This document shows positions 11,444-56,120 of a stretch of DNA of 64,000 bases, in pieces. A program made the translations under genes and the position numbers. Position 1 is the stretch's first letter; the number at the start of each line of letters is the position of its first letter. The notes beneath the pieces are model-generated. The model was not told the DNA's origin. It saw only the letters and a list, made by a program, of their open reading frames with translations, and made no database searches. Source of the stretch: Leptolyngbyales cyanobacterium (GTDB lineage: Bacteria; Cyanobacteriota; Cyanobacteriia; Leptolyngbyales; Leptolyngbyaceae); assembly GCA_038227635.1 (NCBI GenBank), contig JBBRPT010000006.1:1-64000 (forward strand), written 5' to 3'.

Positions 11444-11678
11444 AATATTCTTTGCGCTTGCGTCTAGGAACCCAACCTTCTGTGGTAAAAGAGTGTTTTA
11501 TAGAGCGTGAGCCAATGTCCTTTTGAGTGCCATCGGAATTACAGAAATTTTAGACAGATGGTTCAATTCTTAGAAACTGTCGGTATAACTAAGTCTGGAG
11601 AACTCAAGCCATTGAGTTGAGTCTTCACCTGCCAGCCAAACCACGATCGTAAGGGTTCTTTTTTCTAGGGTAAAAGTG

Positions 11679-13693: not shown

Positions 13694-13738
13694 TACTCTT
13701 AAACAGTTTATTGGTTGCCCTGTGAGGAGGAACGATCT

Positions 13739-21127: not shown

Positions 21128-22446
21128 GGCTTCAGTTTAGCGAGTTCATCCTGAAACCGTTGAATTTTGTAGATCAAAGGATGCACATCATACCAGATGC
21201 GAATCTCTCCCTCGTGATCGAGACATCGATATTCTAGAATGCAGCGACGTTGCAGCAGACTGCGATGCTCATTGTCATTGGGAATTTCTCGGCGGCGGTG
21301 GCTAACCAGAGCGAGTCGCTCCCACTCCGGCTCCTCTACCGCCCGGTGATAGACCGCCCGCAGTTCCGTGATCGCCCGTTGCACCGATTTTGCTGAGATG
21401 GGGAATTGATCCGTCCGGTTGATTGAGTCTTGCATCATCTGCATCAACTCCCGAATGTGACCTCCACAGGCAATGCACAGCCGCTCTAGCGTTTCGCGAC
21501 TGTCAAACACCTGAGTCTCTAGATCCAAGTCTGAGGCATGGGGCTGCACCCGCAGTTGAATCGCTTCTCGCAATTTTTCCAGTCCTTGAGCGTAAGCGTC
21601 GCCGTTCTGCTGCTGCACCATCACCATTGGCAGCACCTGAGTAGTGCCATAGATCGTCTGCACCTCATTTGCCCAGCGAGAATAAACCAGCGCGATCGGC
21701 ACCGTGTAGATCATGTGGCAATCCAGCCCCTTTAATTGCTCACTGCGATCGAGAAAAATCTCCTCATGATTGCTGCGCCCATTGTCTCGGAAGTCGATCG
21801 GAATCCGATCCAGGTTATCGACAATCATCGCCAGCTTGGTTTTGCCGTTAGGGAGATGCTGACGGGCATCGGCAATAAACTCGTTTAGGGCAGTCAGCAG
21901 CGTAATGGTGTGCGGATTCACCTTCTCGCGAATCTTGGCGCGCTGAGTCGGTTCGGCACGAATGCTAGCCGTGAGCTTGGTAAACACCGACAGAGATGAC
22001 TCCACGCTGGCTTTTTCTAAAGAAACATCCATCAGCGCCAGCTCTTTGAGTTCCTGCCCTCGATCGCGCAGCCAGTTCTGAATAGGCGCGGCATTGGCAG
22101 ACCGAATATCTTTTAGAAAGCGCCGAGTACACGCCAGCAAGATATCAATATATTCCACGTTCTGCGGATCGATATCTTCCTCATCTGCCTCAAAATAGAC
22201 CACAAAGAAGCCGTTCTCTTCCAGGCTTTTTTGCAATCGCCGCAGTTCTGTAGACTTGCCACTGCCCCGATGCCCCGTATAAAGCTGATAGGTGCTCTGA
22301 TCTGAGTTGCGAATCCGTTTACCCACATCATCCACAATGTTTTCATCGCCCCGCACCTCTCGGCAATCGACATACTGCGGGTCGTCTGCTGGCAACGGGC
22401 GAGACGGGTCAAACGAGTTGTAGATTCTGGCTAAGCGATCGCTCAT
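21124..22446 (-). CDS. P-loop NTPase (STAND/AAA-like) of unknown function, coupled to the TPR protein
   Basis: Walker A is GHRGSGKST and Walker B-like is LAMIVDNLD. 440 aa. 4-nt overlap with the downstream TPR gene. Confidence 0.6.
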   Translation of the reverse strand: MSDRLARIYNSFDPSRPLPADDPQYVDCREVRGDENIVDDVGKRIRNSDQSTYQLYTGHRGSGKSTELRRLQKSLEENGFFVVYFEADEEDIDPQNVEYIDILLACTRRFLKDIRSANAAPIQNWLRDRGQELKELALMDVSLEKASVESSLSVFTKLTASIRAEPTQRAKIREKVNPHTITLLTALNEFIADARQHLPNGKTKLAMIVDNLDRIPIDFRDNGRSNHEEIFLDRSEQLKGLDCHMIYTVPIALVYSRWANEVQTIYGTTQVLPMVMVQQQNGDAYAQGLEKLREAIQLRVQPHASDLDLETQVFDSRETLERLCIACGGHIRELMQMMQDSINRTDQFPISAKSVQRAITELRAVYHRAVEEPEWERLALVSHRRREIPNDNEHRSLLQRRCILEYRCLDHEGEIRIWYDVHPLIYKIQRFQDELAKLKP

Positions 22447-27341: not shown

Positions 27342-29193
27342 TTACTACTGCTTTAATCCCAGTTGTTCAGCGCCTAATCACCTGACACCAAACTGTCAGC
27401 AGTGTGGGGCGCTGCTGCAACTGGAATGCTACTATGCCATCAAGCGATTGGGGCAGGGGAAATTTAGCCGCACCTTTTTGGCAATTCGCTCTACGGACTC
27501 TGAAGGAAACAAGTCAGCCGACACAACCCAGTATGTGATTCAACAATGCTGGGGCGATCGCGTCAATGCAACTTTGTTCGCCAAACTGCAAGAAATCGGA
27601 CAGCATCCCCAACTGCCGACGGTGGTAGATTACTTTGAGCACGATGGCATTCATTTTTTGATACAGAACTATATTGCTGGCGAAAGGTTAGATAGGACGA
27701 TCGCCAACAAAGGACAACTCACTCCAACGCAGGTATGGCAAGTTTTAGAATCTGTATTGCTGATTCTGCATTGGATTCATGCTCACGGGGTAATTCATCG
27801 CGACCTCAAACCCGAAAATATTATTTACGCCAAGTCGGAATTCAGATTGGTGGGTATTGCGATTTTCAGCGCTGATTCTCTACAATCCGCGATCGGCAGC
27901 GCCGAGTATGCCGCACCGGAACAACTCCGAGGCGAAGCGGTATTTGCTAGTGATCTCTATAGTTTGGGGGTTATCTGCATTCACCTGTTAACGGGTGTGC
28001 AGCCGTTTCACCTGTTTGACGCGACTGAAAATCGCTGGACGTGGCGCACCTACTGGCTACCCGATCAGACATCCCCTGAGAAGTATCCAGATCGCTTGGC
28101 TCAGATTCTCGATCGCTTAATCGACCCTAACCTCGATCGACGATTTGCATCGGCGGCGGCAGCGATCGCAGCGATCGAGCAGATTCGAGGCAAAAAAATC
28201 GCGATTTCGACCCCCGCACCCCTGATCACTTGGCAAAATACGGCGACGTTGATCGGGCACGAAGGACTGTTTGCCAGCGTCACAGGTGTTGCCATCTCGC
28301 CCGATCATCACTACATTGCCAGCGCCAGCGAAGATAAAACCGTGCGGTTGTGGAATCTGGACACAGGCAAACAAATTCTGGTGCTGCGAGGACATAGCCA
28401 ATTTGTGCAAGCCGTAGCATTTCATCCGCAGCAGTCAAATTGGTTAATCAGTGCAGGGCGCGATCGTCAGATCAAATTTTGGGATTGGACAACTCAGCAG
28501 CAACTCCGCACCCTTATAGGACACACCCAGCACATTCACGCGATCGCCTTCAGCCCTGATGGAACCTTAATTGCCAGTGGCAGTGCCGACAAGACTCTGA
28601 AGTTGTGGACTCTAGATGGTGAAATCATCTCTACTTTTCTAGGGCATCGCTTAGCCGTGAACGCGGTTGCATTCCACCCGATCGCGCCTCTCATCGCCAG
28701 CGCTAGTGCAGACACTACGATTCGTCTTTGGCATCTCGACGGTGAACTCGATTGCACATTGACAGGACATACTCAGGCAGTAAGAGCGATCACATTTAGC
28801 CCCACAGGTCAGCTTCTTGCCAGTGGCGGTGAAGACAAAACCATTCGCCTTTGGGATGTTGCCTCTGGTCAGTGTTGTCGCGTTTTACCAGGACATTCTT
28901 GGTCGATTTCTTCTCTAGTGTTTGCCACAGACCACACCTTGATCAGTGGGAGTTGGGACAAAACCCTCAAGGTGTGGCAGTTGAACACAGGCAAGGAAAT
29001 TGCGAGATTGGTGGGACACACTGATTCGATCTCTAGCTTGGCACTGCAACTCAGTGAACCGATGAACCACAGAGCGACCATCCACTCGCTAGAAAATGCC
29101 GTCTTGATAAGCGGGAGTCGAGATAAAACAATTAAACGCTGGCAGTTTTTTCAGGACGTGTCTTCAATTGAGCCAAACCACGAAAGTACCTAG
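27325..29193 (+). CDS. Ser/Thr protein kinase with N-terminal Cys4 zinc ribbon and C-terminal WD40 beta-propeller
   Basis: CFNPSC...CQQCG, then HRDLKPENII and SAEYAAPE. At least 7 WD40 repeats (GH...WD/W). Its start overlaps the flotillin gene by 17 nt. Confidence 0.85.
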   Translation: MTPVSDYYCFNPSCSAPNHLTPNCQQCGALLQLECYYAIKRLGQGKFSRTFLAIRSTDSEGNKSADTTQYVIQQCWGDRVNATLFAKLQEIGQHPQLPTVVDYFEHDGIHFLIQNYIAGERLDRTIANKGQLTPTQVWQVLESVLLILHWIHAHGVIHRDLKPENIIYAKSEFRLVGIAIFSADSLQSAIGSAEYAAPEQLRGEAVFASDLYSLGVICIHLLTGVQPFHLFDATENRWTWRTYWLPDQTSPEKYPDRLAQILDRLIDPNLDRRFASAAAAIAAIEQIRGKKIAISTPAPLITWQNTATLIGHEGLFASVTGVAISPDHHYIASASEDKTVRLWNLDTGKQILVLRGHSQFVQAVAFHPQQSNWLISAGRDRQIKFWDWTTQQQLRTLIGHTQHIHAIAFSPDGTLIASGSADKTLKLWTLDGEIISTFLGHRLAVNAVAFHPIAPLIASASADTTIRLWHLDGELDCTLTGHTQAVRAITFSPTGQLLASGGEDKTIRLWDVASGQCCRVLPGHSWSISSLVFATDHTLISGSWDKTLKVWQLNTGKEIARLVGHTDSISSLALQLSEPMNHRATIHSLENAVLISGSRDKTIKRWQFFQDVSSIEPNHEST

Positions 29194-41912: not shown

Positions 41913-42668
41913 CTAAAAAGCGTTGGACACAACCGATTGTTCAACCTTCGATACCAACCGCAGCAAATTTTCCCCTAGAACTAGGGTTTCTTTTACCGGA
42001 GATAATCCAAGCAATCGAATTTTTTGGAGTTCAAGGGCAGGATGTAACCAAGGACCATCAGTGCCAAACAATACTTTGTGAGCACCTCCTCTTTGGACTG
42101 CTTGTGCTAAGTAATCAAACCGACGTACACCGGATGTATCGGTATAAACATTAGGAAAGCGAACAATTTGATCAATTACACGGATATGAGCCGTCCAGTC
42201 GTCTGCAAAGCTTCCTAAGTGAGGAATAATAAAGTTCACGTCAGGATATTGAGCTGCCAGCAAATCAATAATTTCAGTCTTGCCAGCGGGGTCATAAAGC
42301 AGCGGTAACCGAAACCTTTGAGCAACCTCGCAAAGTTCACGAGTGGCGGGGGCATCCAGTCGATGGGCTTTGATTCCGCAAAATCCCCATTGAATTACGG
42401 CTTGTTTAACGATCGTATGAACCCGTCCGCGATCGCGCTGAGCATGAACAAAGGCAAATCCCAAAAAACGCCCTGGATATCTGGCAATAATCCGAGCGGT
42501 ATTGGCATTCGCCTGAGCGTAATCGCTATGAAACGGAGCAAAGATCACAGTTTTATAAATGCCCACCGCTTGTGCCCGTTTCAAATACGTTGCGATCGGT
42601 GCATCGGTATCCCAAGGACCGGTTAACAAGTCGCCTTTTCCAGCATGGCAATGGCAATCGATAATCAT
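41913..42668 (-). CDS. Amidohydrolase-2 family (TIM-barrel metal-dependent hydrolase)
   Basis: N-terminal IIDCHCHAG metal-binding motif. 251 aa. 4-nt overlap with the upstream M20 gene. Confidence 0.72.
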   Translation of the reverse strand: MIIDCHCHAGKGDLLTGPWDTDAPIATYLKRAQAVGIYKTVIFAPFHSDYAQANANTARIIARYPGRFLGFAFVHAQRDRGRVHTIVKQAVIQWGFCGIKAHRLDAPATRELCEVAQRFRLPLLYDPAGKTEIIDLLAAQYPDVNFIIPHLGSFADDWTAHIRVIDQIVRFPNVYTDTSGVRRFDYLAQAVQRGGAHKVLFGTDGPWLHPALELQKIRLLGLSPVKETLVLGENLLRLVSKVEQSVVSNAF

Positions 42669-44074
42669 TGTGTATACTCCGCAAAGAAGCGAATTACAGT
42701 CTCAATACCGTGAAAGAAGTTCGGTAAACTCATCTTTTCGTTGGGAGCGTGAATATCATCATCCGGTAATCCGAATCCCAGCAGCACGATCGGCACTTGC
42801 AGCCGTCGATGGAGGTGTTCGACTAGGGGAATTGAGCCGCCGCTGCGAGTGAACACAGGGGGAATGCCCCAAGTTTGCTCAACCGCTCGAATGGCAGCCT
42901 GCATCACTGCACTCTTTTGAGGCAACAAAACCGGACGCGATCTGCCCGTAATTTTTAAGCGGCTACGGATTGCGGGATGACTCAAGGATTTCAGATGGTG
43001 TTCCAGCAGTTGGGCAATTTCGGTGGGTTCTTGATCCGGAACCAGTCGCAGACTCAATCGAGCAATTCCTCGACTGGGAATGACCGATTTCGCACCTGCG
43101 CCTGTGTAACCACCCGCTAATCCATTAATCGTCAAGGCTGGGCGACTGGTCATGCGCTCAAACAAGTCGTAGCCAGGTTCACCCCAGCCCAAGGGCACAT
43201 CAAGGTCAGCTAAGATTTGCTGGTTGCGTTTACAGGCGCAGCGAAGTTGTTGTCGTTCTGTTGGTTGGAGGTCTCGAACCTGCTGATAGAAACCAGGAAT
43301 CGCCACTTTTCCGGTGCGATCGTGCAGTCCTGCAATCATTTCGCTCAAGGCTTGCAGGGGATTCAGCACGGCTCCTCCATATCGCCCAGAGTGCAGATCG
43401 TGCTTGGGTCCGCGCACTTCTAGTTCACAGTTGAGATTGCCGCGCAGTCCATAGATGATTGAGGGTCTGCCGCGTCCTAGCATCTCGGTGTCAGAGACCA
43501 AGACCGCATTAGCTTGAAGTCGTTGCACTTGTCGATCGAGAAACGCAGCTAAGTTCGGACTATTGATTTCCTCTTCCCCTTCTAGCCACACTTTGACATT
43601 GATCGGCAAGGTTCCAGTTGTTCGCAAGTAGCTCTCGATCGCTTTTAAGTGGATAAATAACTGTCCTTTGTCGTCGCTGGCTCCACGAGCAAACAAGCTG
43701 TCTCCCACTATGGTCGCTTTGAACGGATGCGATCGCCATTCATCGATTGGATCAACAAGCTGTACATCATAATGCCCATATAGCAATAACGTTGGCTTTC
43801 CGGTTGCCATTAACCAATCTGCATAGACACTGGGTGCGCCGCCATTCACGCTTGGAATCACTTGAACACGATGCAGACCAATTTCTGCTAAGTGTTGCGC
43901 TAACCACTGGGCACAGGCTTTGATGTCTTTTCGGTGCTGAGGAAGTGCAGAAATAGTAGGGAAAGCGATCAGTTCAGACAGTTGGGAGAGCCAGCGCGAT
44001 CGCATTTCTGGTTGCTGGCTGTAGAGCAGGGGTGCAATTGCTGCTGGTGAAGAGACAAGCATCGCTTTCGCCAA
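42665..44074 (-). CDS. M20 family metallopeptidase (dipeptidase / ArgE-DapE-like)
   Basis: LLLYGHYDVQ...GASDDKGQ motifs. 469 aa. Confidence 0.85.
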   Translation of the reverse strand: MAKAMLVSSPAAIAPLLYSQQPEMRSRWLSQLSELIAFPTISALPQHRKDIKACAQWLAQHLAEIGLHRVQVIPSVNGGAPSVYADWLMATGKPTLLLYGHYDVQLVDPIDEWRSHPFKATIVGDSLFARGASDDKGQLFIHLKAIESYLRTTGTLPINVKVWLEGEEEINSPNLAAFLDRQVQRLQANAVLVSDTEMLGRGRPSIIYGLRGNLNCELEVRGPKHDLHSGRYGGAVLNPLQALSEMIAGLHDRTGKVAIPGFYQQVRDLQPTERQQLRCACKRNQQILADLDVPLGWGEPGYDLFERMTSRPALTINGLAGGYTGAGAKSVIPSRGIARLSLRLVPDQEPTEIAQLLEHHLKSLSHPAIRSRLKITGRSRPVLLPQKSAVMQAAIRAVEQTWGIPPVFTRSGGSIPLVEHLHRRLQVPIVLLGFGLPDDDIHAPNEKMSLPNFFHGIETVIRFFAEYTQ

Positions 44075-44137
44075 GAGTTAACTTTACTGTGAACAATCAC
44101 TGTTATGTCAATCGTCTACTCGGAATTGTCGAGATCA

Positions 44138-45265
44138 TTAAAGAGGTCGATCTAGATTTGGATAGTCTCGATCAAGGTTCCAATCGCACTGACCCCGGTA
44201 ACAACCTGTGCCAACAGCGATTAGCATCCGCCGGTGCTGTCGTTCCTCTTTCAGCTTGTTCCCCGCCCGATTTGCAGCTTCATTGGCGATCGCAATTAAC
44301 TTCTCCTGCTCAGAGGACAATCCTCGGATTCGAGCCATAAACGCCTGCTCTTTTTTACGACCCAAACCATCGCCTGTATGAACATCAAAGATCATCGACA
44401 GCCCCCGAATCGTTCGTAATCCGAGTCGTCGAGTGATGGCTACGCAGGTTGTGATTCTGCCGCTCACGTCTTCTATTTGCAGACGACAGTAATCTGGATC
44501 GGAACACAGGCGAAGTAAGGTACTACTCCAGCGAAAACAAAGCTTTTCAGCACTTGCTTGTCGCACTGCATCCCTAGGTGGCAAAGCAATCAGGTTCTTC
44601 AACTTCTCGGTATCTGCTCCGAAGAACTCTCGTAACCGCCCAGTTTGACGCTCAAATTTTGTGAGCATTGCTTGTAGAGTCCCAGCCGCTAGATTCCACT
44701 GAATCATGCCCATCGAGATGCCATCGACCTCAGACACCCGACACCCAAACTCTCTGTTGTTTTCAAACCGAGTGGTAATTCTCAAAGCAATCAACTCAGC
44801 TTCGCTTAGTTTCGTTGGAGGCAGACACGCTACTTGCCCACCAACATTACAACTCCGTTTACGCTTGCGGGAGCGCTCTGCAATAAAATTGGCAGCATCT
44901 CTCACTTGTCCAGTTCTCTGTAAGTCACCCACCGGAGGCGGCAAAACCCTTGTGATAACAACTTTACGAGCGTAATCAATCCGAGGTATATTCACCATTG
45001 ACAAGAATGGAGTACGATTTGTCCACAAAGCATCGAGTGTTTGAGGTGCTAAACCATCGAGCACACGCAGCATTTCGTACATATTCAAGCCATTCAAGTT
45101 GAGATAAGCACTTCTCCAATCACTGACTCGTACAGCACTCTCAAAAGCTCGACGAACTGAGCTAGGTGTATATTCAAACTCTAGTAGTTTCCATTCTGCT
45201 TCTAATGGTTGATCGCGATATCTAACTGAAACGGGTTCAAATAGCCATTGTGTGGTTCGACTCAT
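44138..45265 (-). CDS. Uncharacterised protein G of the minus-strand block; N-terminal motif MSRTTQWLFEPVS
   Basis: About 375 aa from the ATG at 45265. No confident domain; the FGCRVSEVDGISMGMIQW segment suggests a possible glycoside-hydrolase/lysozyme-like region. Confidence 0.5.
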   Translation of the reverse strand: MSRTTQWLFEPVSVRYRDQPLEAEWKLLEFEYTPSSVRRAFESAVRVSDWRSAYLNLNGLNMYEMLRVLDGLAPQTLDALWTNRTPFLSMVNIPRIDYARKVVITRVLPPPVGDLQRTGQVRDAANFIAERSRKRKRSCNVGGQVACLPPTKLSEAELIALRITTRFENNREFGCRVSEVDGISMGMIQWNLAAGTLQAMLTKFERQTGRLREFFGADTEKLKNLIALPPRDAVRQASAEKLCFRWSSTLLRLCSDPDYCRLQIEDVSGRITTCVAITRRLGLRTIRGLSMIFDVHTGDGLGRKKEQAFMARIRGLSSEQEKLIAIANEAANRAGNKLKEERQHRRMLIAVGTGCYRGQCDWNLDRDYPNLDRPL

Positions 45266-45293
45266 GGTTTTATTAGCTCGAAAATAGAATAAT

Positions 45294-46178
45294 TCACAGC
45301 GATCTAGAAGCAATGATCGTGAATAAGGCATTAAAGAGCCTGTTCAAAGTGTCGCGGTTCTTGAGAGATTGTTCTGTTAAATCGCCCCCCTTTGCCCGGC
45401 GAGCGAACTCTAACAGAAAGCGCCGAGTGACTTGATCGAACTCGCCAGTTTCTGAAATGCTTGCTCCTAATAGACTGTTCAGCGATTCTTGAACAAAGAC
45501 TAGTGTTGATTTTTGCAGCGGATTTCGAGGTCGTCCCCGATTCATGTCACAGTGAAAATGATCGCGGTGATCGGAGCGGTGATAGTCGATCACAGTAGTA
45601 AAAGAGAGCCTGAGACAGGCATTCATGCGGCGCAAGATTGCTCTTTCTGCCGGATTGCGGAAGTTATGAACGATCGTTTCTCGATTGGAGCTAGAAGAGA
45701 TGCCCGATTGTTGCCAGCGCAGCCCAGCAATGTCGATCGCATCGCCAAAAGAATGATTGCTCAATGTGTCTGTGTTACTGATACATCGACATAGATAAGA
45801 GCCGAGGGTTAGAATCGCTTCGATCGGTAAGCCAAATTGAGTCATATTGTTAACAAAGGTACTCAACGCTGTTTCAACTGATGGAATAAACCGCTGCGTT
45901 CTAGGGCGCAATCGCTTGCTTACCACAATCAAGGGTGTGCTTGGATCTTTCCGAACTGCATCTACATACTCAAAAGGGATACCATTTACGGCTTGGACAC
46001 ACAGCAAATTTGGAATAGCTGGACAAACTTTAGGCGTTTTACAGCGTAGCTTTGTTGTGCTGGCAGCTTCAGAACAAGTGCGACGGGCTGAAGTCGGAAC
46101 TAGCTCCCATTCAGTTTCGCCAAGCCACCCATCGGTTCGAGTCGGTATTTCAAACTGCAAAGGATTTTGCTGCCTCAT
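45294..46178 (-). CDS. Peptidase M15-like (LAS zinc D,D/L,D-peptidase) protein H; N-terminal MRQQNPLQFEIP
   Basis: SNHSFGDAIDI matches the M15 SxHxxGxAxD zinc-binding motif. DHRDHFHCD matches the second His motif. The ATG overlaps the TGA of upstream gene F (ATGA). Confidence 0.6.
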   Translation of the reverse strand: MRQQNPLQFEIPTRTDGWLGETEWELVPTSARRTCSEAASTTKLRCKTPKVCPAIPNLLCVQAVNGIPFEYVDAVRKDPSTPLIVVSKRLRPRTQRFIPSVETALSTFVNNMTQFGLPIEAILTLGSYLCRCISNTDTLSNHSFGDAIDIAGLRWQQSGISSSSNRETIVHNFRNPAERAILRRMNACLRLSFTTVIDYHRSDHRDHFHCDMNRGRPRNPLQKSTLVFVQESLNSLLGASISETGEFDQVTRRFLLEFARRAKGGDLTEQSLKNRDTLNRLFNALFTIIASRSL

Positions 46179-47125
46179 CGGGTCACCTCTGTTGAGTTCT
46201 TCAGAAATGGAGTCGCTTTGATACGGGTTTCCCAATAAGTAATCGGGACTCTGTTGTGATCGCCTGTTGTTGATCGATTTACCGAGACGTTAGAGAGTTT
46301 TTGCCGCTTTGCATATATTTGTAAACTGGTTGCCAGAGGTGCAGTTTGACTGTTGGCAATGTAGTAAATGAAGAGATTACTGGTGGGATTCCGCTTTGCC
46401 CAACTTCCCCAGCCCGTATCATCTCCAGTGTTATACGTACAATCAAATCCCCAGCATTCACGGATTTTGCTTGCATAAGTAGCTTTAGAAAGCGCGATCG
46501 TTCTCATCGGTAAACCGCCCCCTGAATGACAGGCAAGAATCAGATTACCAAGGCTGAGCGGTTGATCAAACTGCATGGAAGGCGCGTAATACGTCCGAAT
46601 TGCTGCTAACACCTGATCAATGTAAGCATCGAAGCCACTGGCTTGAGTGAGATTGCCGGATTCCGATCGCGACCCTAAAGTTGGAGCGACGAGAATAGCA
46701 TTTTTACTGCTGGCATTGACTCCTTCTCGAAATGCAAAGAACGGATAGAACTGTCGATTCCAATATTGGTCGATCGTCAAGTTCGTTGGATAGTAGCCAG
46801 GAGCCGGAGATCGACCGCGCTGAACTGGAGTGCGATGATGACCCTGGAGGTAGAGAATCAGATCGACCTGAGGTGTAAACCGATAGTTAGCAGGCAGAAA
46901 AACCCCGGTCATGGGTTGCGGACAGACTTTAGTGCGATCGCGCTTTGTGCTACATCCAAGATTGATGTTGAGATAGAGAGTTGAGAAGAGGGGTTGAGAT
47001 TCTGACCGAATCAAGGATGGAGCAGCTTGAGTCGGAGATTCAAATAGCCCATTCTGCTCAAAGTTTAGATAAGAAGTCGGGCTGCGTGAAGGAGCCTCGA
47101 ACATCCACTGAGTTGAACGATTCAT
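46175..47125 (-). CDS. Putative alpha/beta-hydrolase-like protein F; N-terminal MNRSTQWMFEAPS
   Basis: ILACHSGGG is a nucleophile-elbow-like Sm-x-S-x-Sm. GGAG sits 9 nt upstream of the start. Confidence 0.5.
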   Translation of the reverse strand: MNRSTQWMFEAPSRSPTSYLNFEQNGLFESPTQAAPSLIRSESQPLFSTLYLNINLGCSTKRDRTKVCPQPMTGVFLPANYRFTPQVDLILYLQGHHRTPVQRGRSPAPGYYPTNLTIDQYWNRQFYPFFAFREGVNASSKNAILVAPTLGSRSESGNLTQASGFDAYIDQVLAAIRTYYAPSMQFDQPLSLGNLILACHSGGGLPMRTIALSKATYASKIRECWGFDCTYNTGDDTGWGSWAKRNPTSNLFIYYIANSQTAPLATSLQIYAKRQKLSNVSVNRSTTGDHNRVPITYWETRIKATPFLKNSTEVTR

Positions 47126-47154
47126 ACAGTACTCCTAGCGAGGATAGATGAGTT

Positions 47155-48048
47155 CTATCTCATGACATTTGGGGCAGGCATCATCCCGTTCGATCGTGCA
47201 AATACCGGATCGGGTCGTGTTCCACGAGGAGGAGGACCTGGCTGGTAAATATTGCGCGGGGGTGGAGTGGGACGGCTGATCCGCATTCCTTCTTCGCTGG
47301 AGATCCATTCTTCAGAGTATTCGGCGATGCGGTAGAGCAACGCTTCAAAGTCAGTGCGGTTCTTCTTGAGGACGAAGGGTTCGGCTAACCAACGGATGAT
47401 TTCTCGTCCAGCAACCGCCATCCGGTTCATCGTACTGGCGTGAACGGATTGACCAAAGTATTGCCACAAAACTAGTTCAATCATTTCCCAGGCATTAGCA
47501 GCCCCAAACTGGGCGCGAACATCGGGAGCATCTAGAACCTTAAAGGCTTCCGCTAATGCTTGACTGGTTTCTACCCGCAGCACATTGATATAGCCGTAAG
47601 AAGAGTTCTTCAAGTTGTTGCGTAAATCGAGTCCGGTTCGACGGACGATCGCCATGGAACCAAAGGTCGGATCAGTGGCATTTTGGCGAATCACTTCGCT
47701 AATTCGTTTGTCGCGCCAGAACTTTGCGGTTTCGCTGATAAAGTGAGTGAAAAGTCCATGAAACTCTGGATTGGCACGAGCGCCCGGTCCCGGATCGCGC
47801 CCATAGCCTAAGACCCGCGTATAGGCCCGACGGCGATCGCCCTGTTGGTAGCGCAAAAGGTTGTGCTTATCAAAGCGGTAGAGTCCGTAAGCCCCTTCGC
47901 CGCTGGAAATTCGCAAGGTTCCGGCTCGGAATAGCTCTTGCAACTTGTGCATCACTTTAAACACACCCAAAAATTCATGGATAGCGATGTAGTAGAGGTC
48001 GCCTGCCGCAAGGATGCGATCGCTGGTCACCGTATCGTCGTAATCCAC
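47155..48048 (-). CDS. Uncharacterised protein E (GTG start; probably the 3' part of a frameshifted longer gene)
   Basis: The frame stays open upstream to 48120 without an ATG (..GGLADLIGLGNTAPTNLGATQVSSGIVDYDD). ORF 48117..48311 ends in a G5 run where one extra G would fuse the two frames. Confidence 0.5.
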   Translation of the reverse strand: MDYDDTVTSDRILAAGDLYYIAIHEFLGVFKVMHKLQELFRAGTLRISSGEGAYGLYRFDKHNLLRYQQGDRRRAYTRVLGYGRDPGPGARANPEFHGLFTHFISETAKFWRDKRISEVIRQNATDPTFGSMAIVRRTGLDLRNNLKNSSYGYINVLRVETSQALAEAFKVLDAPDVRAQFGAANAWEMIELVLWQYFGQSVHASTMNRMAVAGREIIRWLAEPFVLKKNRTDFEALLYRIAEYSEEWISSEEGMRISRPTPPPRNIYQPGPPPRGTRPDPVFARSNGMMPAPNVMR

Positions 48049-48116
48049 AATGCCGCTGGAAACCTGGGTTGCTCCTAAATTGGTGGGTGCCGTGTTGCCT
48101 AACCCGATCAGGTCGG

Positions 48117-48311
48117 CTAGTCCCCCATCCGGCGGAACGCCTTTGCCATTTGGGCTTCATCAAATTTGCGAACCTGATCATCCACCGTTCGGTTCAGCAC
48201 TTCTGCCAATTGAGGATTGGCAACCAACTCTGGACCCAGTTGTTCAATGGTGTTTTGCAGGAGCGCAGCAATACGATCGTTGCGCTGGTCGTAATCTCTG
48301 GTGTTCGGCAT
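48117..48311 (-). CDS. Small ORF E-prime (64 aa), likely the N-terminal part of protein E separated by a homopolymer frameshift
   Basis: MPNTRDYDQRNDRIAALLQ...AFRRMGD, followed by a stop within GGGGGAC TAG. Confidence 0.4.
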   Translation of the reverse strand: MPNTRDYDQRNDRIAALLQNTIEQLGPELVANPQLAEVLNRTVDDQVRKFDEAQMAKAFRRMGD

Positions 48312-48424
48312 ACGTTTGTTCCTATTCCTGATCTAAATATCTCTGAGTGCTGCTGAGGGAAGGGCATCGCGATCGCCAACCGGATCACCATGCGAAGCCT
48401 TAATTGTTTCGGTTCACGATTGCT

Positions 48425-49954
48425 CTAACTCTCCCCAGGTGGACTAGTCGGGGGAACCGTGCTACCCACTCCCAGATCTGCCAGTGTATCGAGTTGGAAG
48501 AGCAACTCACTCAAGGTTTGCTGCACCCGCTCAAAAGACAGCACTCTGTCTAGCAGTAAGCCCTTGGAGGGGTCGCTTTTAAGGGTGGACAAGACAATCC
48601 CAATCACCCAGAACAAGGTATCTGCCTGGTCGGTGACAAAATCTAAGCCAAACTGACCTGAAGCGGACAAGATAGATGGCGCTTCCAGGGTGGCAAACCG
48701 CTCAACCCACTCGTTGAAATCATTGACGGTGATGTCCGGTAGCAGCAAGCTAAACGTGGTGGGACTGGAGAACAACGACAGGCTGATGTCGATCGCGTTG
48801 GGAGAGTTGATCGCGTTGGAAGGGTTAGGTCTCGTCCGAGGAGATCCTAAGATCGAGAACAGTGCGGTATCCGATCGCCGCTCGCTGGCAGTAAATCCGA
48901 TCGAATCCATTGCCGCCATCAGGCTAGTATTGCTATCTGAAATCACGGGCAACATGATGTAAGACCGCGACAGCCGCTCACTATAGCGCCCTGTTACGTT
49001 TGTCTCCACGTCATTGGTTACAGCGAACTGCTCAAAAATTGTTCTTAATGTACCTGCATAGTTTTTCAGTAACTCAAAGCCTGCAACTTGTGTTTCGTCT
49101 GACAGTGTGACTGGGAAAACCTCTGTGCCGTTTCTTTGCCCTCGGAATCCACCCCGATCGACCAACCGTGCTTGTTCGCCCAATTGAATAATCGAACCAT
49201 CTAGCGTGTTGAGATACGTTTCCACCCGTTCTCGACGGGGTTCATCAATGCGTCCAAATTCATCAACTAAAGTGTTGATTTGCGATCGAATCAACGCCCG
49301 TAATGCTTCCACCGCATCAATATCCGCTATGGGATCAAAGGGTTGCAGTGCCTCCAAAACCCGCAGGGCATCTGCCGCAATAATGCTTGTCTGACGATAG
49401 AGATTTGCCTGTTCCACAGACAACTGACCCACGCCACTGCTATTCGGTGGTGCTGACCTGTAACCGGCGGCTGCATCATTGCCGAGACTGTCAGGTGAAT
49501 AGTAGCCGTTGCCCACGGTGGAGTAATTGCCGCTTCCGTTCAGGGAAACGATACTGCGAGTGGGCGTCATCATCACTTTGCCATGAGCATCCGTTGGGAA
49601 AGCACTGTTCAAGGCATTAACAAATCCATCATATCCGCGTCCCGGTGTTCGCCCTAAAACCTGAGTCAGCGCCCGTTCTACCTGCTGAGTTAAGGCATTT
49701 GCGTTTCCACTGGCACTAGAGCGAGAGGAGCCATTGTCGTAGATGGTCGGTTCATTGCCTGCCGATCGTCCTAAGATTTGGGCAATTTGAGCCAACTGCT
49801 TGGGAATGGCTTCTGTAAGCTGTGGCTGTAAAAAAAGGCTGTTCAGGAGAACCTGACGCATTTCTTGCAATTGGTCTCTTTGTCGTAGATTCTGAAGCTG
49901 CCCATCGTTGAGCACCTCACCGTTGATCAGCGTTCCGAAAACTGGAAAAGCCAT
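48425..49954 (-). CDS. Uncharacterised protein D (509 aa)
   Basis: Long ORF co-oriented within the block. Gly/Ser/Asn-rich central region. No motif recognised. Confidence 0.55.
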   Translation of the reverse strand: MAFPVFGTLINGEVLNDGQLQNLRQRDQLQEMRQVLLNSLFLQPQLTEAIPKQLAQIAQILGRSAGNEPTIYDNGSSRSSASGNANALTQQVERALTQVLGRTPGRGYDGFVNALNSAFPTDAHGKVMMTPTRSIVSLNGSGNYSTVGNGYYSPDSLGNDAAAGYRSAPPNSSGVGQLSVEQANLYRQTSIIAADALRVLEALQPFDPIADIDAVEALRALIRSQINTLVDEFGRIDEPRRERVETYLNTLDGSIIQLGEQARLVDRGGFRGQRNGTEVFPVTLSDETQVAGFELLKNYAGTLRTIFEQFAVTNDVETNVTGRYSERLSRSYIMLPVISDSNTSLMAAMDSIGFTASERRSDTALFSILGSPRTRPNPSNAINSPNAIDISLSLFSSPTTFSLLLPDITVNDFNEWVERFATLEAPSILSASGQFGLDFVTDQADTLFWVIGIVLSTLKSDPSKGLLLDRVLSFERVQQTLSELLFQLDTLADLGVGSTVPPTSPPGES

Positions 49955-49993
49955 TGTTACTAACCTCTGCTGATGTATAGAGTCATCGTTCTG

Positions 49994-51364
49994 TTACCGC
50001 CTGCCGAGAATGCGGTAGAAATTATCGGTAATGGTTTGAGGAGTGGCAAGTTGGCGATCGAGGGCAAACCTCGCCGCACTGATCATAAAACGGACGGGAA
50101 TGGTACCGGGATCTTGTCCGGCGGCAAGTCGCTGTCCTGCCAATTCCACCATCGCCATTTGCTGAGGTCCGAAGGGGATTGCCTGGGCCAGAGACTTGTT
50201 GCCAAACTGACGATACGGTTGAAAAACCATCGTATCTACGACCATTTCGGCAGCCGGATAAAAGGTTTTCATGAAATCAGGGGGAATGTCGTTGGGCGTG
50301 ACTCTGGGATAGAGCCGTTGCCAGATCCGCGTCAGATCCGCCGCCATTTTGTCAAACCCCATGCGGCGCAGCAAAATCAGGTTGATCAGCGTTCGCAGAT
50401 AGGGCGTGGGATGGACGGACATGCCGCTAAATTGAACCGTGCTGGCGGGCGATCGCCCCACCACATCCATCAACGATTCCACCGCAGCCGGACCACCCAA
50501 AACCAGAGCAAACATATCTGCCATGGTTTCTTTGTGCCAGCGTGCCCAGACCTGGGCGACCTGGGCAGGAAATTTACCTTCGGTGGTCAGGCGTTGATAG
50601 AGGCGGGCAGGGATTTCTTCCCACAATCCCAAATCTGCCTGAAGATTATGCGACACCTCATGCAGAATGCTAGAGAGTGCCCAGACATTATCTAATCGAT
50701 GTTGCGGCAACATGATCAGCGGAAACGGATTGGGATTGCGTCGCAGACGCATAATCGGCACCCCCCGACGAAAGGTTGCCGGACTAAAGCCACTGTTGGC
50801 ATAGCTAAACGGCAGCAAACTGGGCGTGGGTTGAGCCGTTCCCAGACCTACGTAGAGGTCTTCATAGCAATTGGCACAGATGCGATCGACCGATCGTAAG
50901 CGTTCGCCAAAATTAGAGAGCCGCTGGATGAATAAATCGAAGTAAAAATCCCAAATGCCTTCGACATAAAGCACCTGGCTGCCCACCTTCTGCTTGCGCT
51001 CTAACAACACTTGCAGGCGGCTGGTGGTGGGTTCTCGGCGGGCAGCGGCAGCGGCAGCTTCCACCCAGCGAGACATTTCGACTAATTGACTGCGGAATTG
51101 GTCAATGAATCGATTCACCGCTTCAATATGTGCCTCGCTTGGAGCCGCCACCCCGCTGCCAAACTCATCATTACGAAAAGGACGCAGCGATTTGGCATGG
51201 CGGGTAAGGTTAATCGACTGAATATTCAGCCAGTTATCCAGCAGGAGCCGTTCACTGGCGGTGGTTGCTCCTTTCATCACCGTTGCAGTCGCTTGCGCTG
51301 GGGCAGCAACTTTAGAATCTGAAGGCGAGTGTTGAGGCGGGGCAGAAGAGTTTGCCATGATCAC
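49994..51364 (-). CDS. Uncharacterised protein C with HExxH zinc-metallopeptidase-like motif
   Basis: ILHEVSHNLQADLGLWEE: HExxH with a downstream Glu. 456 aa. Confidence 0.55.
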   Translation of the reverse strand: MIMANSSAPPQHSPSDSKVAAPAQATATVMKGATTASERLLLDNWLNIQSINLTRHAKSLRPFRNDEFGSGVAAPSEAHIEAVNRFIDQFRSQLVEMSRWVEAAAAAARREPTTSRLQVLLERKQKVGSQVLYVEGIWDFYFDLFIQRLSNFGERLRSVDRICANCYEDLYVGLGTAQPTPSLLPFSYANSGFSPATFRRGVPIMRLRRNPNPFPLIMLPQHRLDNVWALSSILHEVSHNLQADLGLWEEIPARLYQRLTTEGKFPAQVAQVWARWHKETMADMFALVLGGPAAVESLMDVVGRSPASTVQFSGMSVHPTPYLRTLINLILLRRMGFDKMAADLTRIWQRLYPRVTPNDIPPDFMKTFYPAAEMVVDTMVFQPYRQFGNKSLAQAIPFGPQQMAMVELAGQRLAAGQDPGTIPVRFMISAARFALDRQLATPQTITDNFYRILGRR

Positions 51365-51422
51365 GGCTTCCTGGGGGTCAAAGATTCGTGGCGTTTAGAA
51401 CGCATAGAACGCAGAACAGGGG

Positions 51423-52583
51423 TTAGCGACCTGCCGCAGCACGGCGGCTGGCACACGCCGGACACTGACCATTTCTAGTGGCGGTGGCACGGCGGGGGTT
51501 GGGAGGTGCCGTGCGTTGACGCAGAACGGCATTCCGCACGATCGCCCGTTGCACCAGTTGGGGATTGCTCAACACACGCTGGCTAGCGGCTGCCATTGCC
51601 TTGACTGCCAGAGGACCTGTGATCGGCTGACCGGATTTAGAAGCCGCTTTCAGCGTGGCGATCGTCCGTCGTTGAATGGTGGGTACGGTTCGCAGCAGTT
51701 GCCGCCCGATCGGACCTTGTTGGCGTAACGTCTTCACAAGTTGACTATTTGCCTGTGCCAAAATTGGCATCACCGGACGCAGTGCCCGTCGTCCGCCCAT
51801 AATCGTAATCGTGATCGGCAAGGCTGCGCCCAGGGTAGATTCTGCTTCGGCTTCGGTAGCGGCTTCTGCCGATTGCGCTGCTAGAAATTCGGTCAGTGCC
51901 GCTTCATGGGCGACTTCTGTATTTCCAACTTCGGCTTCCGATTCATTGGTGCCAAAGAATTCTGACTCCATCTGTCCCGCTTCCATTTCCCCTTCTTGAA
52001 CCAGGGCACTGGTGAGTTTGGCGGCAAGGGGTCCTGCGATCGGACCAATGCCCGGAATCAAGGCAGCGAGTTTACCCGCTACGATCGGAGCAAATCGCTT
52101 TGCTAGAGGAGCCGCTACTTTTGCAATCTTACCAATGCCTCGTTTGACCGCACGAAACGCTTTCTTGAAGAAATACTCACCCTCATCTTCGGGATTGGAG
52201 TAAGGATTACTGTAGTGGGCTGCTTCGTGGCTGGTTTCCCATTCATCCTCAAACTCAGGATTGGAGTAAGGATTGGAGTAAGGATTGCTGTAGTGGGCTG
52301 CTTCGTGGCTGGTTTCCCATTCATCCTCAAGCTCAGGATTGCTGTAGTGGGCTGCTTCGTGGCTGGTTTCCCATTCATCCTCAAGCTCAGGATTGCTGTA
52401 AGGATTGCTGTAATGGGCAGCTTCATGGCTGGTTTCCCATTCATCCTCAAACTCAGGATTGCTGTAGTGGGCAGCTTCGTTTTCCCATTCATCCTCAAAC
52501 TCAGGATTGCTGTAAGGATTGCTGTAATGAGCTGCTTCATGGGAAGCAGGAGCCTCAAACATTGCTTGATGTTGCGTTACCAT
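51423..52583 (-). CDS. Acidic tandem-repeat protein B (paralog of A); N-terminal MVTQHQAMFEAPAS
   Basis: Six repeats of EAAHYSNP(YSNP)nE[FL]EDEWETSH. Then a cationic stretch FFKKAFRAVKRGIGKIAKVAAPLAKRFAPIVAGKLAALIPGIGPIAG. Then an Arg-rich C-terminal domain. Confidence 0.6.
   Translation of the reverse strand: MVTQHQAMFEAPASHEAAHYSNPYSNPEFEDEWENEAAHYSNPEFEDEWETSHEAAHYSNPYSNPELEDEWETSHEAAHYSNPELEDEWETSHEAAHYSNPYSNPYSNPEFEDEWETSHEAAHYSNPYSNPEDEGEYFFKKAFRAVKRGIGKIAKVAAPLAKRFAPIVAGKLAALIPGIGPIAGPLAAKLTSALVQEGEMEAGQMESEFFGTNESEAEVGNTEVAHEAALTEFLAAQSAEAATEAEAESTLGAALPITITIMGGRRALRPVMPILAQANSQLVKTLRQQGPIGRQLLRTVPTIQRRTIATLKAASKSGQPITGPLAVKAMAAASQRVLSNPQLVQRAIVRNAVLRQRTAPPNPRRATATRNGQCPACASRRAAAGR
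52190..52560. repeat. Tandem 51-66-bp coding repeats inside gene B
   Basis: Repeated CTCAGGATTGCTGTA(AGGATTGCTGTA)GTGGGCTGCTTCGTGGCTGGTTTCCCATTCATCCTCAA units. ORFs 52115..52558(-) and 52215..52589(+) are off-frame readings of these repeats. Confidence 0.85.
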
Positions 52584-52664
52584 TCGTAAAACTCTCCTTG
52601 TGAATTAGGGTGGGAGTACGTGTCAAGGGTTGAACCCCGATCGGGGCATTCCTGCTGCTTCAGG

Positions 52665-53555
52665 TCAAGCGGCAGCAACGGCTCGTTGTCGGATCACCGC
52701 GTTGCGAATCATTGCCTGCCTGACCATTTGGGCGTTCCCAAAAACGCGGGCAGCATGAGCCGCTATGACTCGTCGAACCAGCGTTGCCGTGATCGAACGA
52801 CCCAATCGCGGTGCCGCTCGTAAACTTGCGATCGTTCGCCGTAGAATCGTGGGAATCAGTCGGAGTAAGCGTCGCCCTGCCGTACCGCGTCGATGCAGTA
52901 AATGGACTAAATGGGCAGTTGCGGCAATCAACACAGGCATCAGCGATCGCAGCCGTCGTCTGCCCCCCGCACTCCGCACTGCGATCGGAACCACCGTGCC
53001 AATTAAAGCCGATGCTTCACTGGGATTGCGACTGTGGCTCGCTTCTGCCGCCAATACCTCGGTCAAAGCAGCTTCTTGAGCGGCTTCTGAATCACTCGCT
53101 TCGGCTTCTGCTGCATAAAGACCAAAGAATTCTGCTTCCAGATACTCTGTTTCCAGATCACCTTCTTGAAGCAAAATGCTGATGAATCTGCGCGCCATCG
53201 GAGTTGAAACTAACCCCGATCGAGGAGTCGCTCCAAGCAGCGTTCGGGCGACGATCGGAGCTAGATGTTGGGCAAACGGTGCAGTTACTCTCGCAACTTG
53301 CCGAATGCCTTGAAGGGCTTGTCTAAAGGAAAACTCTGCTTCCCACTCACTTGCCATTTCGGTATGAGGGTAATGCGAAGCTTCCTGGGTTTCCCATTCG
53401 TATTCGTCCCCCCGATAGGAGTAAGGTCGAGAATCGTGAGTTGTTCTGAACATCTCCCATTCATCGGGTCGTTGCGGATGAGAATAGTGAGTTGCTTCAA
53501 ACAGGTTATTGCTATTACCTAGTCCTTTTCCATTAGTATTCGCGTATCCACTCAT
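52665..53555 (-). CDS. Acidic-repeat protein A (paralog of B), first gene of the block
   Basis: N-terminal degenerate HYS.P...DEWE repeats (…NNLFEATHYSHPQRPDEWEMF…). Shares conserved APFAQHLAPIVA, LQEGD...EAEFFG and Arg-rich C-terminal domain with B. Confidence 0.55.
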   Translation of the reverse strand: MSGYANTNGKGLGNSNNLFEATHYSHPQRPDEWEMFRTTHDSRPYSYRGDEYEWETQEASHYPHTEMASEWEAEFSFRQALQGIRQVARVTAPFAQHLAPIVARTLLGATPRSGLVSTPMARRFISILLQEGDLETEYLEAEFFGLYAAEAEASDSEAAQEAALTEVLAAEASHSRNPSEASALIGTVVPIAVRSAGGRRRLRSLMPVLIAATAHLVHLLHRRGTAGRRLLRLIPTILRRTIASLRAAPRLGRSITATLVRRVIAAHAARVFGNAQMVRQAMIRNAVIRQRAVAAA

Positions 53556-53759: not shown

Positions 53760-54300
53760 CCTCTGAAGCAGTGCTCGATAGTCAAAGTGTGAAAAGTGCT
53801 GCCGGGGTTCAGGATGCGGTGGGTTTTAATGGGGCAAGGTGATCAAAGGACGCAAGCGATTTGCCACCGTCGATACTTTAGGCTTGGTCTTGCGCGTGTT
53901 GGTAACAGCCGCCCGTGCTGGGGAATGCGAAGGCAGCAAACAAGTGCTCCAATGAGTCCAGCAACGGGGCAAAGCGGGGTCTCGCCTACATACGATTTGG
54001 GTAGACGGCGGCTTTGACGGCAGTCCCTTCATGCAGTGGGTCATCACGGTCTGTCGGTGGATGGTGCAGGTAGTGCTGCAACCAGAGCAGACTAAAGGGT
54101 TCGTCTTGCTCAAAAAGCGCTGGGTCGTTGAGCGCACAGCCCTGGAGGCGGGTTTCCCTCCGTAGGAGACTGTGTAGAGCGGACTTTTAGTTGATGCACT
54201 GTCGTCGCTTGGTGCACGACTACGAATTGCTGCTAGAAACGTCTGAGACGTTGATCTATCTGGCAATGATTCGGATTATGGTTCGGCGCTTGGCGTAAAT
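53760..54300 (+). pseudogene. IS5-family-like (DDE_Tnp_1) transposase C-terminal remnant, frameshifted
   Basis: IWVDGGFDGSPFMQWVITVCRWMVQVVLQPEQTKGFVLLKKRWVVERT, then in another frame DYELLLETSETLIYLAMIRIMVRRLA(stop). The N-terminal half is absent; truncation is at the edge of the block. Confidence 0.55.
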
Positions 54301-54754: not shown

Positions 54755-55168
54755 ATGGATGCTAATAATGACGAAAATCTGAGTTCAGATCCTCAAAATT
54801 TTCTGTCTTTAGACCAAGAAATTTTGCTGAACTGTTTAGTGAAAAAGGTTTCTCAAGCTGAACCTTTGAAACGTCTTCAAGCGGCTGAAGAAACGGTTAA
54901 CGAAATCATAATCGAATCTGACATTGATGGAACGCATTATTATCTTGTTCGGTGTACACCAAAGTCTGCTCTCCAAGTTAATTTGAGTCCGCGTGAGTTT
55001 GCGATCGCTCGCCTAGTTGCTCAAGGGTTTCCAAACAAATGTGTTGGTAATCAGCTCAACATTAGCCCTTGGACTGTTGCGACTCATGTCCGTCGTATTT
55101 TTGCTAAGCTAAGCGTCAATTCAAGGACGGCAATGGTATCAAAGCTGATGGAAGCAGGTTTGTTGTAG
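54755..55168 (+). CDS. LuxR-family HTH transcriptional regulator (no receiver domain)
   Basis: C-terminal LSPREFAIARLVAQGFPNKCVGNQLNISPWTVATHVRRIFAKL. Confidence 0.7.
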   Translation: MDANNDENLSSDPQNFLSLDQEILLNCLVKKVSQAEPLKRLQAAEETVNEIIIESDIDGTHYYLVRCTPKSALQVNLSPREFAIARLVAQGFPNKCVGNQLNISPWTVATHVRRIFAKLSVNSRTAMVSKLMEAGLL

Positions 55169-55361: not shown

Positions 55362-55907
<546 letters not shown>

Positions 55908-56120
55908 GCGCCCGCTTTCGCCCACTCAACTTCAAACCCCTTCATCTGAGGACACCTAAACGCCTTATAGGGAAATCTTTTTGGGCGAAACCGTAACTTT
56001 CTGTTCAAATGCGCCCGCTAGTCCAAATTGAGCCTCCCCACCCTATCATTTTTGCGACAGAACCCTATACCTTAGGGTTGTGCAAAGAACCCCTTTCTCG
56101 CGCAAATCTTCGAGAACCCA

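Follow-up and report, generated by a model that had tools for sequence, protein, structure and literature searches.

A widespread bacterial gene cassette that pairs a largely database-unmatched core with tagged, leaderless, predicted peptidoglycan-directed clients

The window analyzed here, the first 64,000 nucleotides (nt) of the forward strand of contig JBBRPT010000006.1 from a Leptolyngbyales cyanobacterium (assembly GCA_038227635.1), contains a tightly packed, co-oriented block of ten open reading frames (ORFs) on the minus strand between positions 41913 and 53555. This block is one complete copy of a conserved, horizontally spread cassette, in which a set of core proteins is accompanied by variable proteins, termed clients, that carry a short N-terminal tag. 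In the order of transcription the genes are A, B, C, D, E, F, H, P3, the M20 peptidase and the Amidohydro_2 hydrolase; they are listed below together with the regulator gene upstream of them, with lengths in amino acids (aa) where given.

A, 52665..53555, minus strand: shorter paralogue of B, assigned to the same family by clustering
B, 51423..52583, minus strand: tagged protein with an architecture conserved across phyla
C, 49994..51364, minus strand: candidate gluzincin-type metallopeptidase, HEVSH...E; probable start ATG at 51358
D, 48425..49954, minus strand: all-helical bundle with one beta-hairpin (residues 387-404) in an AlphaFold2 (AF2) model
E, 47155..48311, minus strand: hallmark protein, 385 aa when intact; frameshifted in the window
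F, 46175..47125, minus strand: putative Ser-Asp-His hydrolase, LACHSGGG; tagged
H, 45294..46178, minus strand: predicted LAS-type (M15/Extensin-like_C) peptidoglycan peptidase; degenerate tag
P3, 44138..45265, minus strand: tagged client; true start probably 45265, with Met six residues before Trp
M20, 42665..44074, minus strand: core M20A dipeptidase/carboxypeptidase, NCBIfam PRK08201; probable start ATG at 44062
Amidohydro_2, 41913..42668, minus strand: core metal-dependent hydrolase, PF04909 E = 2.2e-17
LuxR/GerE-family regulator, 54755..55168, plus strand: Pfam GerE E = 2.5e-16; divergent, 1.2 kb upstream of the cassette

Re-reading of the coordinates reproduced the packed minus-strand arrangement described in a first-pass annotation made from the sequence alone, with intergenic gaps of 28-113 nt and ATGA stop/start overlaps exactly at 42665-42668 (Amidohydro_2/M20) and 46175-46178 (F/H). 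The eleven genes counted in that annotation are reduced to ten, the extra one having arisen from a 1-nt deletion that splits E. The two parts of this gene are the ORFs of 64 aa (48117-48311) and 297 aa (47155-48048), since the Logan contig L004, which is otherwise 100 % identical to the window over the compared stretch, carries an intact 385-aa E and every homologue of E is a single ORF. The lesion is one missing A in the A-run at 48149-48151 (AAA in the window, AAAA in L004) and is due either to an error in sequencing the homopolymer or to a mutation that inactivated the gene recently. Two additional long ORFs, one that overlaps B out of frame (52115-52558, minus strand) and is generated by the repeats of that gene, and one that is antisense to C (49973-50695, plus strand), are unsupported by homologues and almost certainly do not represent genes. 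A promoter and terminator scan returned counts equal to those of shuffled controls, and no match was obtained when the window was scanned with Rfam and for tRNAs.

Mapping of the window proteins by BLAST and hidden Markov models (HMMs), together with clustering of the ORFs of each locus, revealed the same gene order in ~40 loci from at least seven phyla: (LuxR regulator), A and/or B, C, an optional gene X, D, E, zero to six variable genes, M20 and Amidohydro_2. Because this order is kept in ~40 independent loci of seven phyla, the gene arrangement lies far beyond chance. The synteny comparison, a check that had been proposed with the first-pass annotation, bears out its view of the block as a functionally linked, uncharacterized unit; its statement that no parent system can be recognized holds for the databases but not for the block itself, which is a conserved system in its own right. 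A scan with an alignment of E, restricted to one genome per species, yielded 42 loci, with carriers among the Cyanobacteria, Melainabacteria/Vampirovibrio, Chloroflexota (Ktedonobacteraceae, Roseiflexaceae, Thermomicrobiales), Eremiobacterota, Actinomycetota (Trebonia, a Mycobacterium metagenome-assembled genome (MAG), Solirubrobacterales) and Acidobacteriota, to which a tblastn search against plasmids added a locus on a Paraburkholderia megaplasmid. The distribution is patchy, with plasmid copies and with insertion sequence (IS) debris at the border. No description of the cassette, of the tag or of the E family was found in the literature searched, the coverage of which excluded subscription journals, so that a prior description is possible.

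The loci that carry no clients define the core. In the Actinomycetota, Acidobacteriota and Paraburkholderia loci M20 and Amidohydro_2 directly follow E, and in the Eremiobacterota M20 does so, with Amidohydro_2 seen only as degraded or overlapping fragments. Because the two genes follow E directly in client-free loci, they are assigned to the core, while F, H and P3 count as insertions; the wall hydrolases are accessory clients that do not define the system. An extra gene, X, which encodes a poorly conserved helical protein of 180-300 aa, lies between C and D in loci L006, L013, L018, L020-L026, L030, L044, L046 and L050, and these cassettes have a more divergent D (24-45 % identity to the window D). 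The window belongs to the subtype that lacks X.

The first-pass annotation reported no regulator in the block. None lies inside it, but the LuxR/GerE gene upstream probably encodes the cassette regulator: its product is 76 % identical to a regulator in the same divergent position in the Phormidesmis locus L027, and this family flanks the cassette in 19 loci. The cyanobacterial regulator is of the LuxR/GerE type; SARP/BTAD regulators take its place in some Chloroflexota and Eremiobacterota loci and in the one Mycobacterium MAG. In the window, IS/resolvase debris separates the LuxR gene from A. DDE transposase-like fragments are found at ~53826-54266 and 54031-54165, and N- and C-terminal fragments of a serine recombinase/resolvase at 55371-55556 and 55771-55908, just beyond the LuxR gene. 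The mobile-element debris between 53800 and 55900 is consistent with the cassette being an island.

The tag was defined from 41 client ORFs as the 12-residue consensus M-(N/K)-(R/T/K)-Q-(S/N/T)-Q-W-L-F-E-A-P, with Met positioned exactly six residues before Trp in 38 of the 41; its peptide form is MNRQSQWLFEAP. In the window it reads MNRSTQWMFEAP in F, which has a second, degenerate copy, and MSRTTQWLFEPV in P3, and the tag of H, MRQQNPLQFEIP, is degenerate. The N-terminus of B is related to it. Cyanobacterial B proteins start with M-A-x-Q-x-(E/Q)-A-(L/M)-F-E-A-P-A-x-H-E-A (...AMFEAPASHEA in the window), and ...(L/I/M)FEAPA.HEA is found at the start of B in Chloroflexota, Eremiobacterota, Actinomycetota and Melainabacteria. 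After the tag, about half of the clients have one to three (D/E)-(W/F/Y)-(D/E) motifs, of the kind that B repeats up to eight times.

Among ORFs of at least 100 aa located between E and M20/Amidohydro_2, 40 of 68 bear the tag, versus 1 of 440 other ORFs in the same loci. A scan of metagenome contigs with back-translated QWLFEAP alone gave mostly chance matches and ~11 with the full N-terminal context; where the contig was long enough, the full-context tag adjoined C/D/E or M20/Amidohydro_2 in 4 of 4 cases. The association of tag and cassette is reciprocal. The tag shows no DNA-level conservation between the window genes and is therefore interpreted as a protein signal; a role as a recombination site was ruled out, as the conservation is that of a protein and not of DNA. 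It is absent from viral contigs, and the four pattern matches in IMG/VR were chance occurrences outside ORFs.

The variable clients of the window comprise three proteins. In F, Ser201, Asp228 and His290 are invariant in eight homologues and lie in the order of an alpha/beta-hydrolase triad, and the CHSGG signature noted in the first pass is present; the sequence has no Pfam or PDB profile match that would place it in the alpha/beta fold, and an F-like domain is fused to Peptidase_M23 in a Ktedonobacteraceae locus. H matches PF06904 (Extensin-like_C) with E = 4.9e-13 and 50.1 bits against a cutoff of 25.4, and weakly PF13539 (M15_4, E = 0.003), in agreement with the LAS/M15 zinc motifs SNHSFGDAIDI and HFHCD recognized earlier. 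P3 matches PHROG_30036, a family of unknown function (E = 1.6e-8), and in homologues its C-terminal domain is fused to PG_binding_1 or DUF2272/CHAP. Equating this domain with the SLT domain of a client from another locus (L014) was considered and rejected, as BLASTP gave no support. Twenty clients from other loci contain the Pfam domains GH25 with PG_binding_1, SLT with PG_binding_1, VanY, Peptidase_M74, Peptidase_M23 and Amidase_2, and also DUF2272/CHAP, OmpA-like, beta-lactamase-like and DUF4056 domains. Judged by domain assignment, these proteins and H would between them attack glycan, amide and peptide bonds in peptidoglycan. F, H and P3 accordingly correspond to a variable peptidoglycan-directed set, in keeping with the earlier suggestion of an arsenal aimed at the cell envelope.

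Client-borne wall hydrolases occur in cyanobacteria and Ktedonobacteria, and the number of clients per locus ranges from 0 to 6. In the cyanobacterial locus L002 (12745-17460) one client is frameshifted into pieces of 587 and 105 aa, and in another an IS (DDE_3) insertion interrupts the reading frame after 53 aa. Such decaying genes suggest that clients are dispensable and turn over.

Pfam and NCBIfam recognize only three proteins of the block, namely Amidohydro_2, the M20A dipeptidase and H. A, B, C, D, E and F have no credible match in Pfam, NCBIfam, PHROGs or PADLOC, so that the profiles do not place the whole set in a known pathway, and nothing credible emerged from searches of PDB sequences with profiles of C, D, E and F or with phmmer for P3. 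As far as this evidence goes, no known type of system includes the core machinery.

B proteins are 330-430 aa long, with a C-terminal region of 200 aa that is conserved across phyla. In the window, the tag is followed by ~7 acidic-aromatic repeats (NPEFEDEWE); the sequence of the repeat region varies by lineage (NPEFEDEWE, GEYEYEGS, HEAQEWEWE). The repeats are followed by a (D/E)xFF boundary, beyond which a basic amphipathic helix leads into a conserved small-xxx-small (glycine-zipper) segment, GMIPGVGAIAGPLAGKL. The C-terminal part consists of an acidic helix and an Arg-rich domain (+23/-0), and the successive blocks of the window B carry net charges of -35, +8, -13 and +23. A, with its degenerate tag NLFEAT, a few (D/E)-W-E motifs and a basic Arg-rich C-terminal domain, has no glycine zipper; the A/B family numbers 55 members in 37 loci.

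The HExxH...E (HEVSH) signature of C, which had drawn attention in the first pass, is invariant in 27 homologues (H235, E236, H239 and E279) and conforms to an HExxH motif with a downstream Glu in the third-ligand pattern. C, for which Pfam, a profile search of PDB sequences, PHROGs and PADLOC gave no match, is 48-82 % identical across 27 loci. D, modeled by AF2 as all-helical with one beta-hairpin and a predicted local distance difference test (pLDDT) score of 77, contains a disordered S/G/N/Y-rich insert at residues 129-175 and has 261 homologues, all cyanobacterial and all labeled 'hypothetical'. Homologues of D of ~700 aa (P0005, P0010, P0019, P0020 and P0023) possess a C-terminal Ig-like Big_1 domain. 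E is composed of an N-terminal helical hairpin, a linker, an all-alpha domain of ~250 aa and a Pro-rich tail. It had 2842 matches, of which the best 120 are all at least 75 % identical, and its identity across seven phyla is 52-90 %; conservation is spread over the whole domain, with no conserved catalytic set. The cross-phylum identities of C and E indicate unusual constraint.

The identification of the last two genes as an M20 peptidase and an amidohydrolase agrees with Pfam and NCBIfam. M20 scores 516 bits against PRK08201 (cutoff 441) and matches both PF01546 and PF07687, the latter in accord with the presence of the dimerization domain; its nearest PDB sequences are Sso-CP2, DUG1 and CNDP2. 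Amidohydro_2 is translationally coupled to M20 through the ATGA overlap and directly follows it in five phyla (Cyanobacteria, Chloroflexota, Actinomycetota, Acidobacteriota and Pseudomonadota). C, M20 and Amidohydro_2 belong to the core and are not effectors.

To act, peptidoglycan enzymes have to get across the cytoplasmic membrane. No block protein of the window has a signal peptide, and none contains a hydrophobic 19-mer above a Kyte-Doolittle (KD) value of 1.6; because they lack signal peptides, the clients cannot use Sec or Tat. Pfam and NCBIfam reveal no ATPase domain in any cassette protein. No immunity-sized ORF adjoins the clients, as gaps of 28-113 nt or 4-nt overlaps leave no room for one, and Pfam finds no secretion apparatus or phage tail in the block, as had been stated in the first pass.

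An HMM search of 1.8 billion representative proteins retrieved 810 E-like clusters at 50 % identity. A distant branch comprises proteins of 550-740 aa, some with PKD or Big_2 domains, which reside in a different conserved cluster found in Burkholderia stabilis (L048), on a metagenome contig (L049) and on a plasmid of Tolypothrix sp. PCC 7712 (L051). This second cluster encodes a sigma-54 activator, a DUF3467 protein, an S8 protease, the E-like protein and a second E-like paralogue, three to four helical paralogues, and a giant Amidase_2/Peptidase_C70 protein or a peptidoglycan-binding protein. It resembles the cassette in its E-like all-alpha domain (hmmsearch E of 1e-21 to 1e-32), an adjacent protease and wall-directed proteins. 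In contrast to the cassette, an S8 serine protease replaces the zincin, the E-like protein measures 600-740 aa and no FEAP tag is seen; of the HMMs for A/B, C, D, E, M20 and Amidohydro_2, only that for E found a match in the Burkholderia-type cluster. Two unrelated-looking clusters thus share an E-like protein, a protease and wall-directed proteins, which is counted in favor of the favored interpretation set out below.

What was observed directly is the conserved gene order, the tag in its fixed register, the domains found in the clients, and a lack of signal peptides, transmembrane segments, ATPase and immunity genes; all functional roles proposed below are inferred. In the broadest reading, the cassette may be the first recognized member of a new class of system, ATPase-less, Sec-independent, tag-based and defined by the E superfamily, in which a protease gates the release or activation of wall hydrolases and of a membrane-active B, which has reached at least seven phyla by horizontal transfer, and to which the S8 protease cluster would be a sister class. 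This reading is given somewhat less than an even chance of being correct. The favored interpretation is more specific and is held with still more reserve, as a possibility on the doubtful side: clients would be designated for the core by their tag and processed by the zincin C, and B, once processed, would allow them to get to the wall without Sec. Presumably, the LuxR-type regulator would switch the operon on, and the tagged clients, B everywhere and in addition peptidoglycan hydrolases in cyanobacteria and Ktedonobacteria, would be made in the cytoplasm without Sec/Tat signals and be held or recognized by the non-enzymatic D and E. C would then cut off the tag and the acidic pro-region. Freed from the neutralizing -35 acidic N-terminus, the basic amphipathic/glycine-zipper segment could insert processed B into the cytoplasmic membrane and so let the wall hydrolases reach peptidoglycan. 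The cytosolic M20 dipeptidase and Amidohydro_2 may degrade the released acidic peptides or wall peptides. The logic would be that of a protease-gated holin and endolysin built from unrelated parts, and the output would be regulated wall lysis, either of the producer, a self-lysis that releases its contents, or of its neighbors.

Several observations weigh against this favored interpretation. Eremiobacterota, Actinomycetota, Acidobacteriota and Paraburkholderia possess the core (A-E, M20 and Amidohydro_2) with no wall hydrolase at all, and because the loci of these four lineages lack such a client, wall lysis cannot be the ancestral output of the cassette; what the cassette does in the phyla without hydrolase clients is poorly explained both by the favored interpretation and by the carrier alternative discussed next. 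Neither of the two convincingly accounts for the strict conservation of M20 and Amidohydro_2. Pore formation by B is purely conjectural, and the maximum KD value over 19 residues in B, 1.57, falls in a G/A/P-rich segment and lies below the usual transmembrane threshold. The AF2 model of E has a pLDDT of only 37 (44 homologues in a shallow alignment, at least 75 % identical), and that of D matches only generic helix bundles in PDB and BFVD, an uninformative fold. Finally, the Ig-like domains on some D homologues (Big_1) and on distant E relatives (PKD, Big_2) raise the possibility that D and E are exposed at the surface or extracellular, which would fit a released complex better than a cytoplasmic scaffold.

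Such a released toxin complex is the main rival, although an unlikely one. D, E and B would form a proteinaceous carrier that is loaded by means of the tag, exits by lysis or in vesicles, and delivers hydrolases to competitors. The extreme, whole-domain conservation of E and its lack of a catalytic set are as expected of a self-assembling structural protein, the Ig-like Big_1, Big_2 and PKD domains are in accord with it, and the combination of a single N-terminus with many wall-degrading C-terminal domains in the clients is the logic of polymorphic toxins. Against this stand the absence of immunity genes beside the clients, searches of PHROGs, PDB and BFVD that gave no resemblance in fold or sequence to capsid, encapsulin, sheath or tube proteins, the absence of the cassette from IMG/VR, and the minimal cassettes without hydrolase cargo. 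Delivery by machinery encoded elsewhere, an option raised in the first-pass annotation, finds no support, since the hydrolases share their tag with the B protein of the cassette and sit between E and M20. F, H and P3 (and C) would in that case be effectors of a type VI secretion system (T6SS), an extracellular contractile injection system (eCIS) or a tailocin; contractile injection systems are known in cyanobacteria according to PMC8894136, and many T6SS/eCIS effectors are likewise leaderless wall hydrolases. However, the tag is shared with the core protein B in all phyla, the client-free ones included, the clients are always inside the cassette with no immunity genes, and no T6SS, eCIS or tailocin genes (sheath, tube, baseplate, VgrG/PAAR, DUF4157) were found in the 64-kb window or in the Pfam-annotated flanks of the two loci L001 and L002, where proximity to such systems had been proposed as a check. 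This explanation is very improbable.

Two other explanations invoke the peptidases. A housekeeping operon for peptidoglycan remodeling or recycling, in which wall trimming would fall to the hydrolases and recycling of the peptides to M20 and Amidohydro_2, would make sense of wall-hydrolase domains next to a cytosolic M20A dipeptidase suited to peptide salvage. It is rendered quite improbable by the patchy distribution with plasmid copies and IS debris, by client numbers of 0-6 with disruption by IS and frameshift in one locus, by hydrolases without export signals and by five core proteins unrelated to wall-metabolism families; unlike in a recycling operon, AmpG, AmpD, NagZ, LdcA and Mpl were not seen in the loci. 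The earlier proposal of an undescribed peptidoglycan or peptide remodeling system comes closer to the present picture, yet the core exists without a wall hydrolase in four lineages. Alternatively, the B repeats could constitute a multi-copy precursor: C would cut it, and M20/Amidohydro_2 would trim it to a small acidic peptide serving, for example, as a signal or metal binder. Tandem repeats in B, three hydrolases in the core and flanking regulators of LuxR or SARP/BTAD type, the latter typical of metabolite clusters, point in this direction. The repeats are not conserved between phyla, however, whereas the C-terminal 200 aa are; there is no modifying enzyme and no exporter, and the tagged wall hydrolases and the highly conserved D and E would be left unexplained, so a peptide product is improbable.

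To our knowledge, little is established about how wall-degrading enzymes that lack a leader exit the cytoplasm other than through phage lysis, and proteins that have no signal peptide predominate in cyanobacterial exoproteomes. The cassette offers a handle on this exit in the form of a 12-residue tag, few conserved partners and a natural series of loci with 0-6 clients. Should the tag direct export, loading or activation, it would define a new route of trafficking or lysis in ecologically important soil and crust bacteria. It would then also serve as a portable tag for releasing proteins from cyanobacteria, and five protein families, with thousands of sequences now labeled 'hypothetical', would gain a role. 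The finding would also bear on programmed lysis, kin conflict or competition in filamentous bacteria.

Elsewhere in the window, a class A penicillin-binding protein (2307-4595, plus strand) combines transglycosylase and transpeptidase domains with an N-terminal FHA domain. Ser/Thr kinases are encoded near its gene, at 7153-8544 and, with WD40 repeats, at 27325-29193. An ORF of 545 aa without a Pfam match (11676-13313, plus strand) lies directly upstream of a B12-binding radical SAM/DUF4070 gene (13715-15358). An AAA_16/STAND-like NTPase (21124-22446, minus strand) beside a TPR-rich protein (19652-21127, minus strand) resembles the NTP-dependent conflict systems of multicellular bacteria.

Among known systems, holin-endolysin lysis and type 10 secretion are closest in logic, with leaderless muralytic enzymes next to a candidate membrane-breaching protein (here B), no immunity genes and independence from Sec/Tat. 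The cassette differs in that the block contains no small transmembrane holin, B having the best KD value, and no match to a PHROG lysis family. Phage context is also lacking, as E and C are absent from IMG/VR and the flanks are chromosomal housekeeping genes, and further differences are the five large conserved core proteins, the shared tag and the conserved M20 and Amidohydro_2.

Polymorphic toxins, as described by Zhang et al. 2012 (PMC3482391), likewise combine one N-terminal trafficking element with many C-terminal enzymatic domains and are encoded by arrayed genes that vary between strains. In contrast, the cassette tag is only 12 residues long and lies at a fixed distance from Met1, immunity genes are absent, and the clients are almost all wall-directed. 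The trafficking modes named there are the type II, V, VI and VII secretion systems (T2SS, T5SS, T6SS, T7SS), PVC, TcdB/TcaC, PrsW and MuF, none of which Pfam detects in the cassette or its flanks. T7SS in particular is set apart by its FtsK/EssC-type ATPase, as no cassette protein has an ATPase domain. Nor does PADLOC recognize anti-phage defense proteins among A, B, C, D, E, F, H and P3. The last comparison concerns B itself. Although there is no sequence relationship, and although B is a protein of 330-430 aa with its conserved 200-aa C-terminal region, it resembles cathelicidin/defensin-type precursors and glycine-zipper toxins in its acidic N-terminal part, its basic amphipathic parts, its small-xxx-small zipper and the protease gene adjacent to its own.

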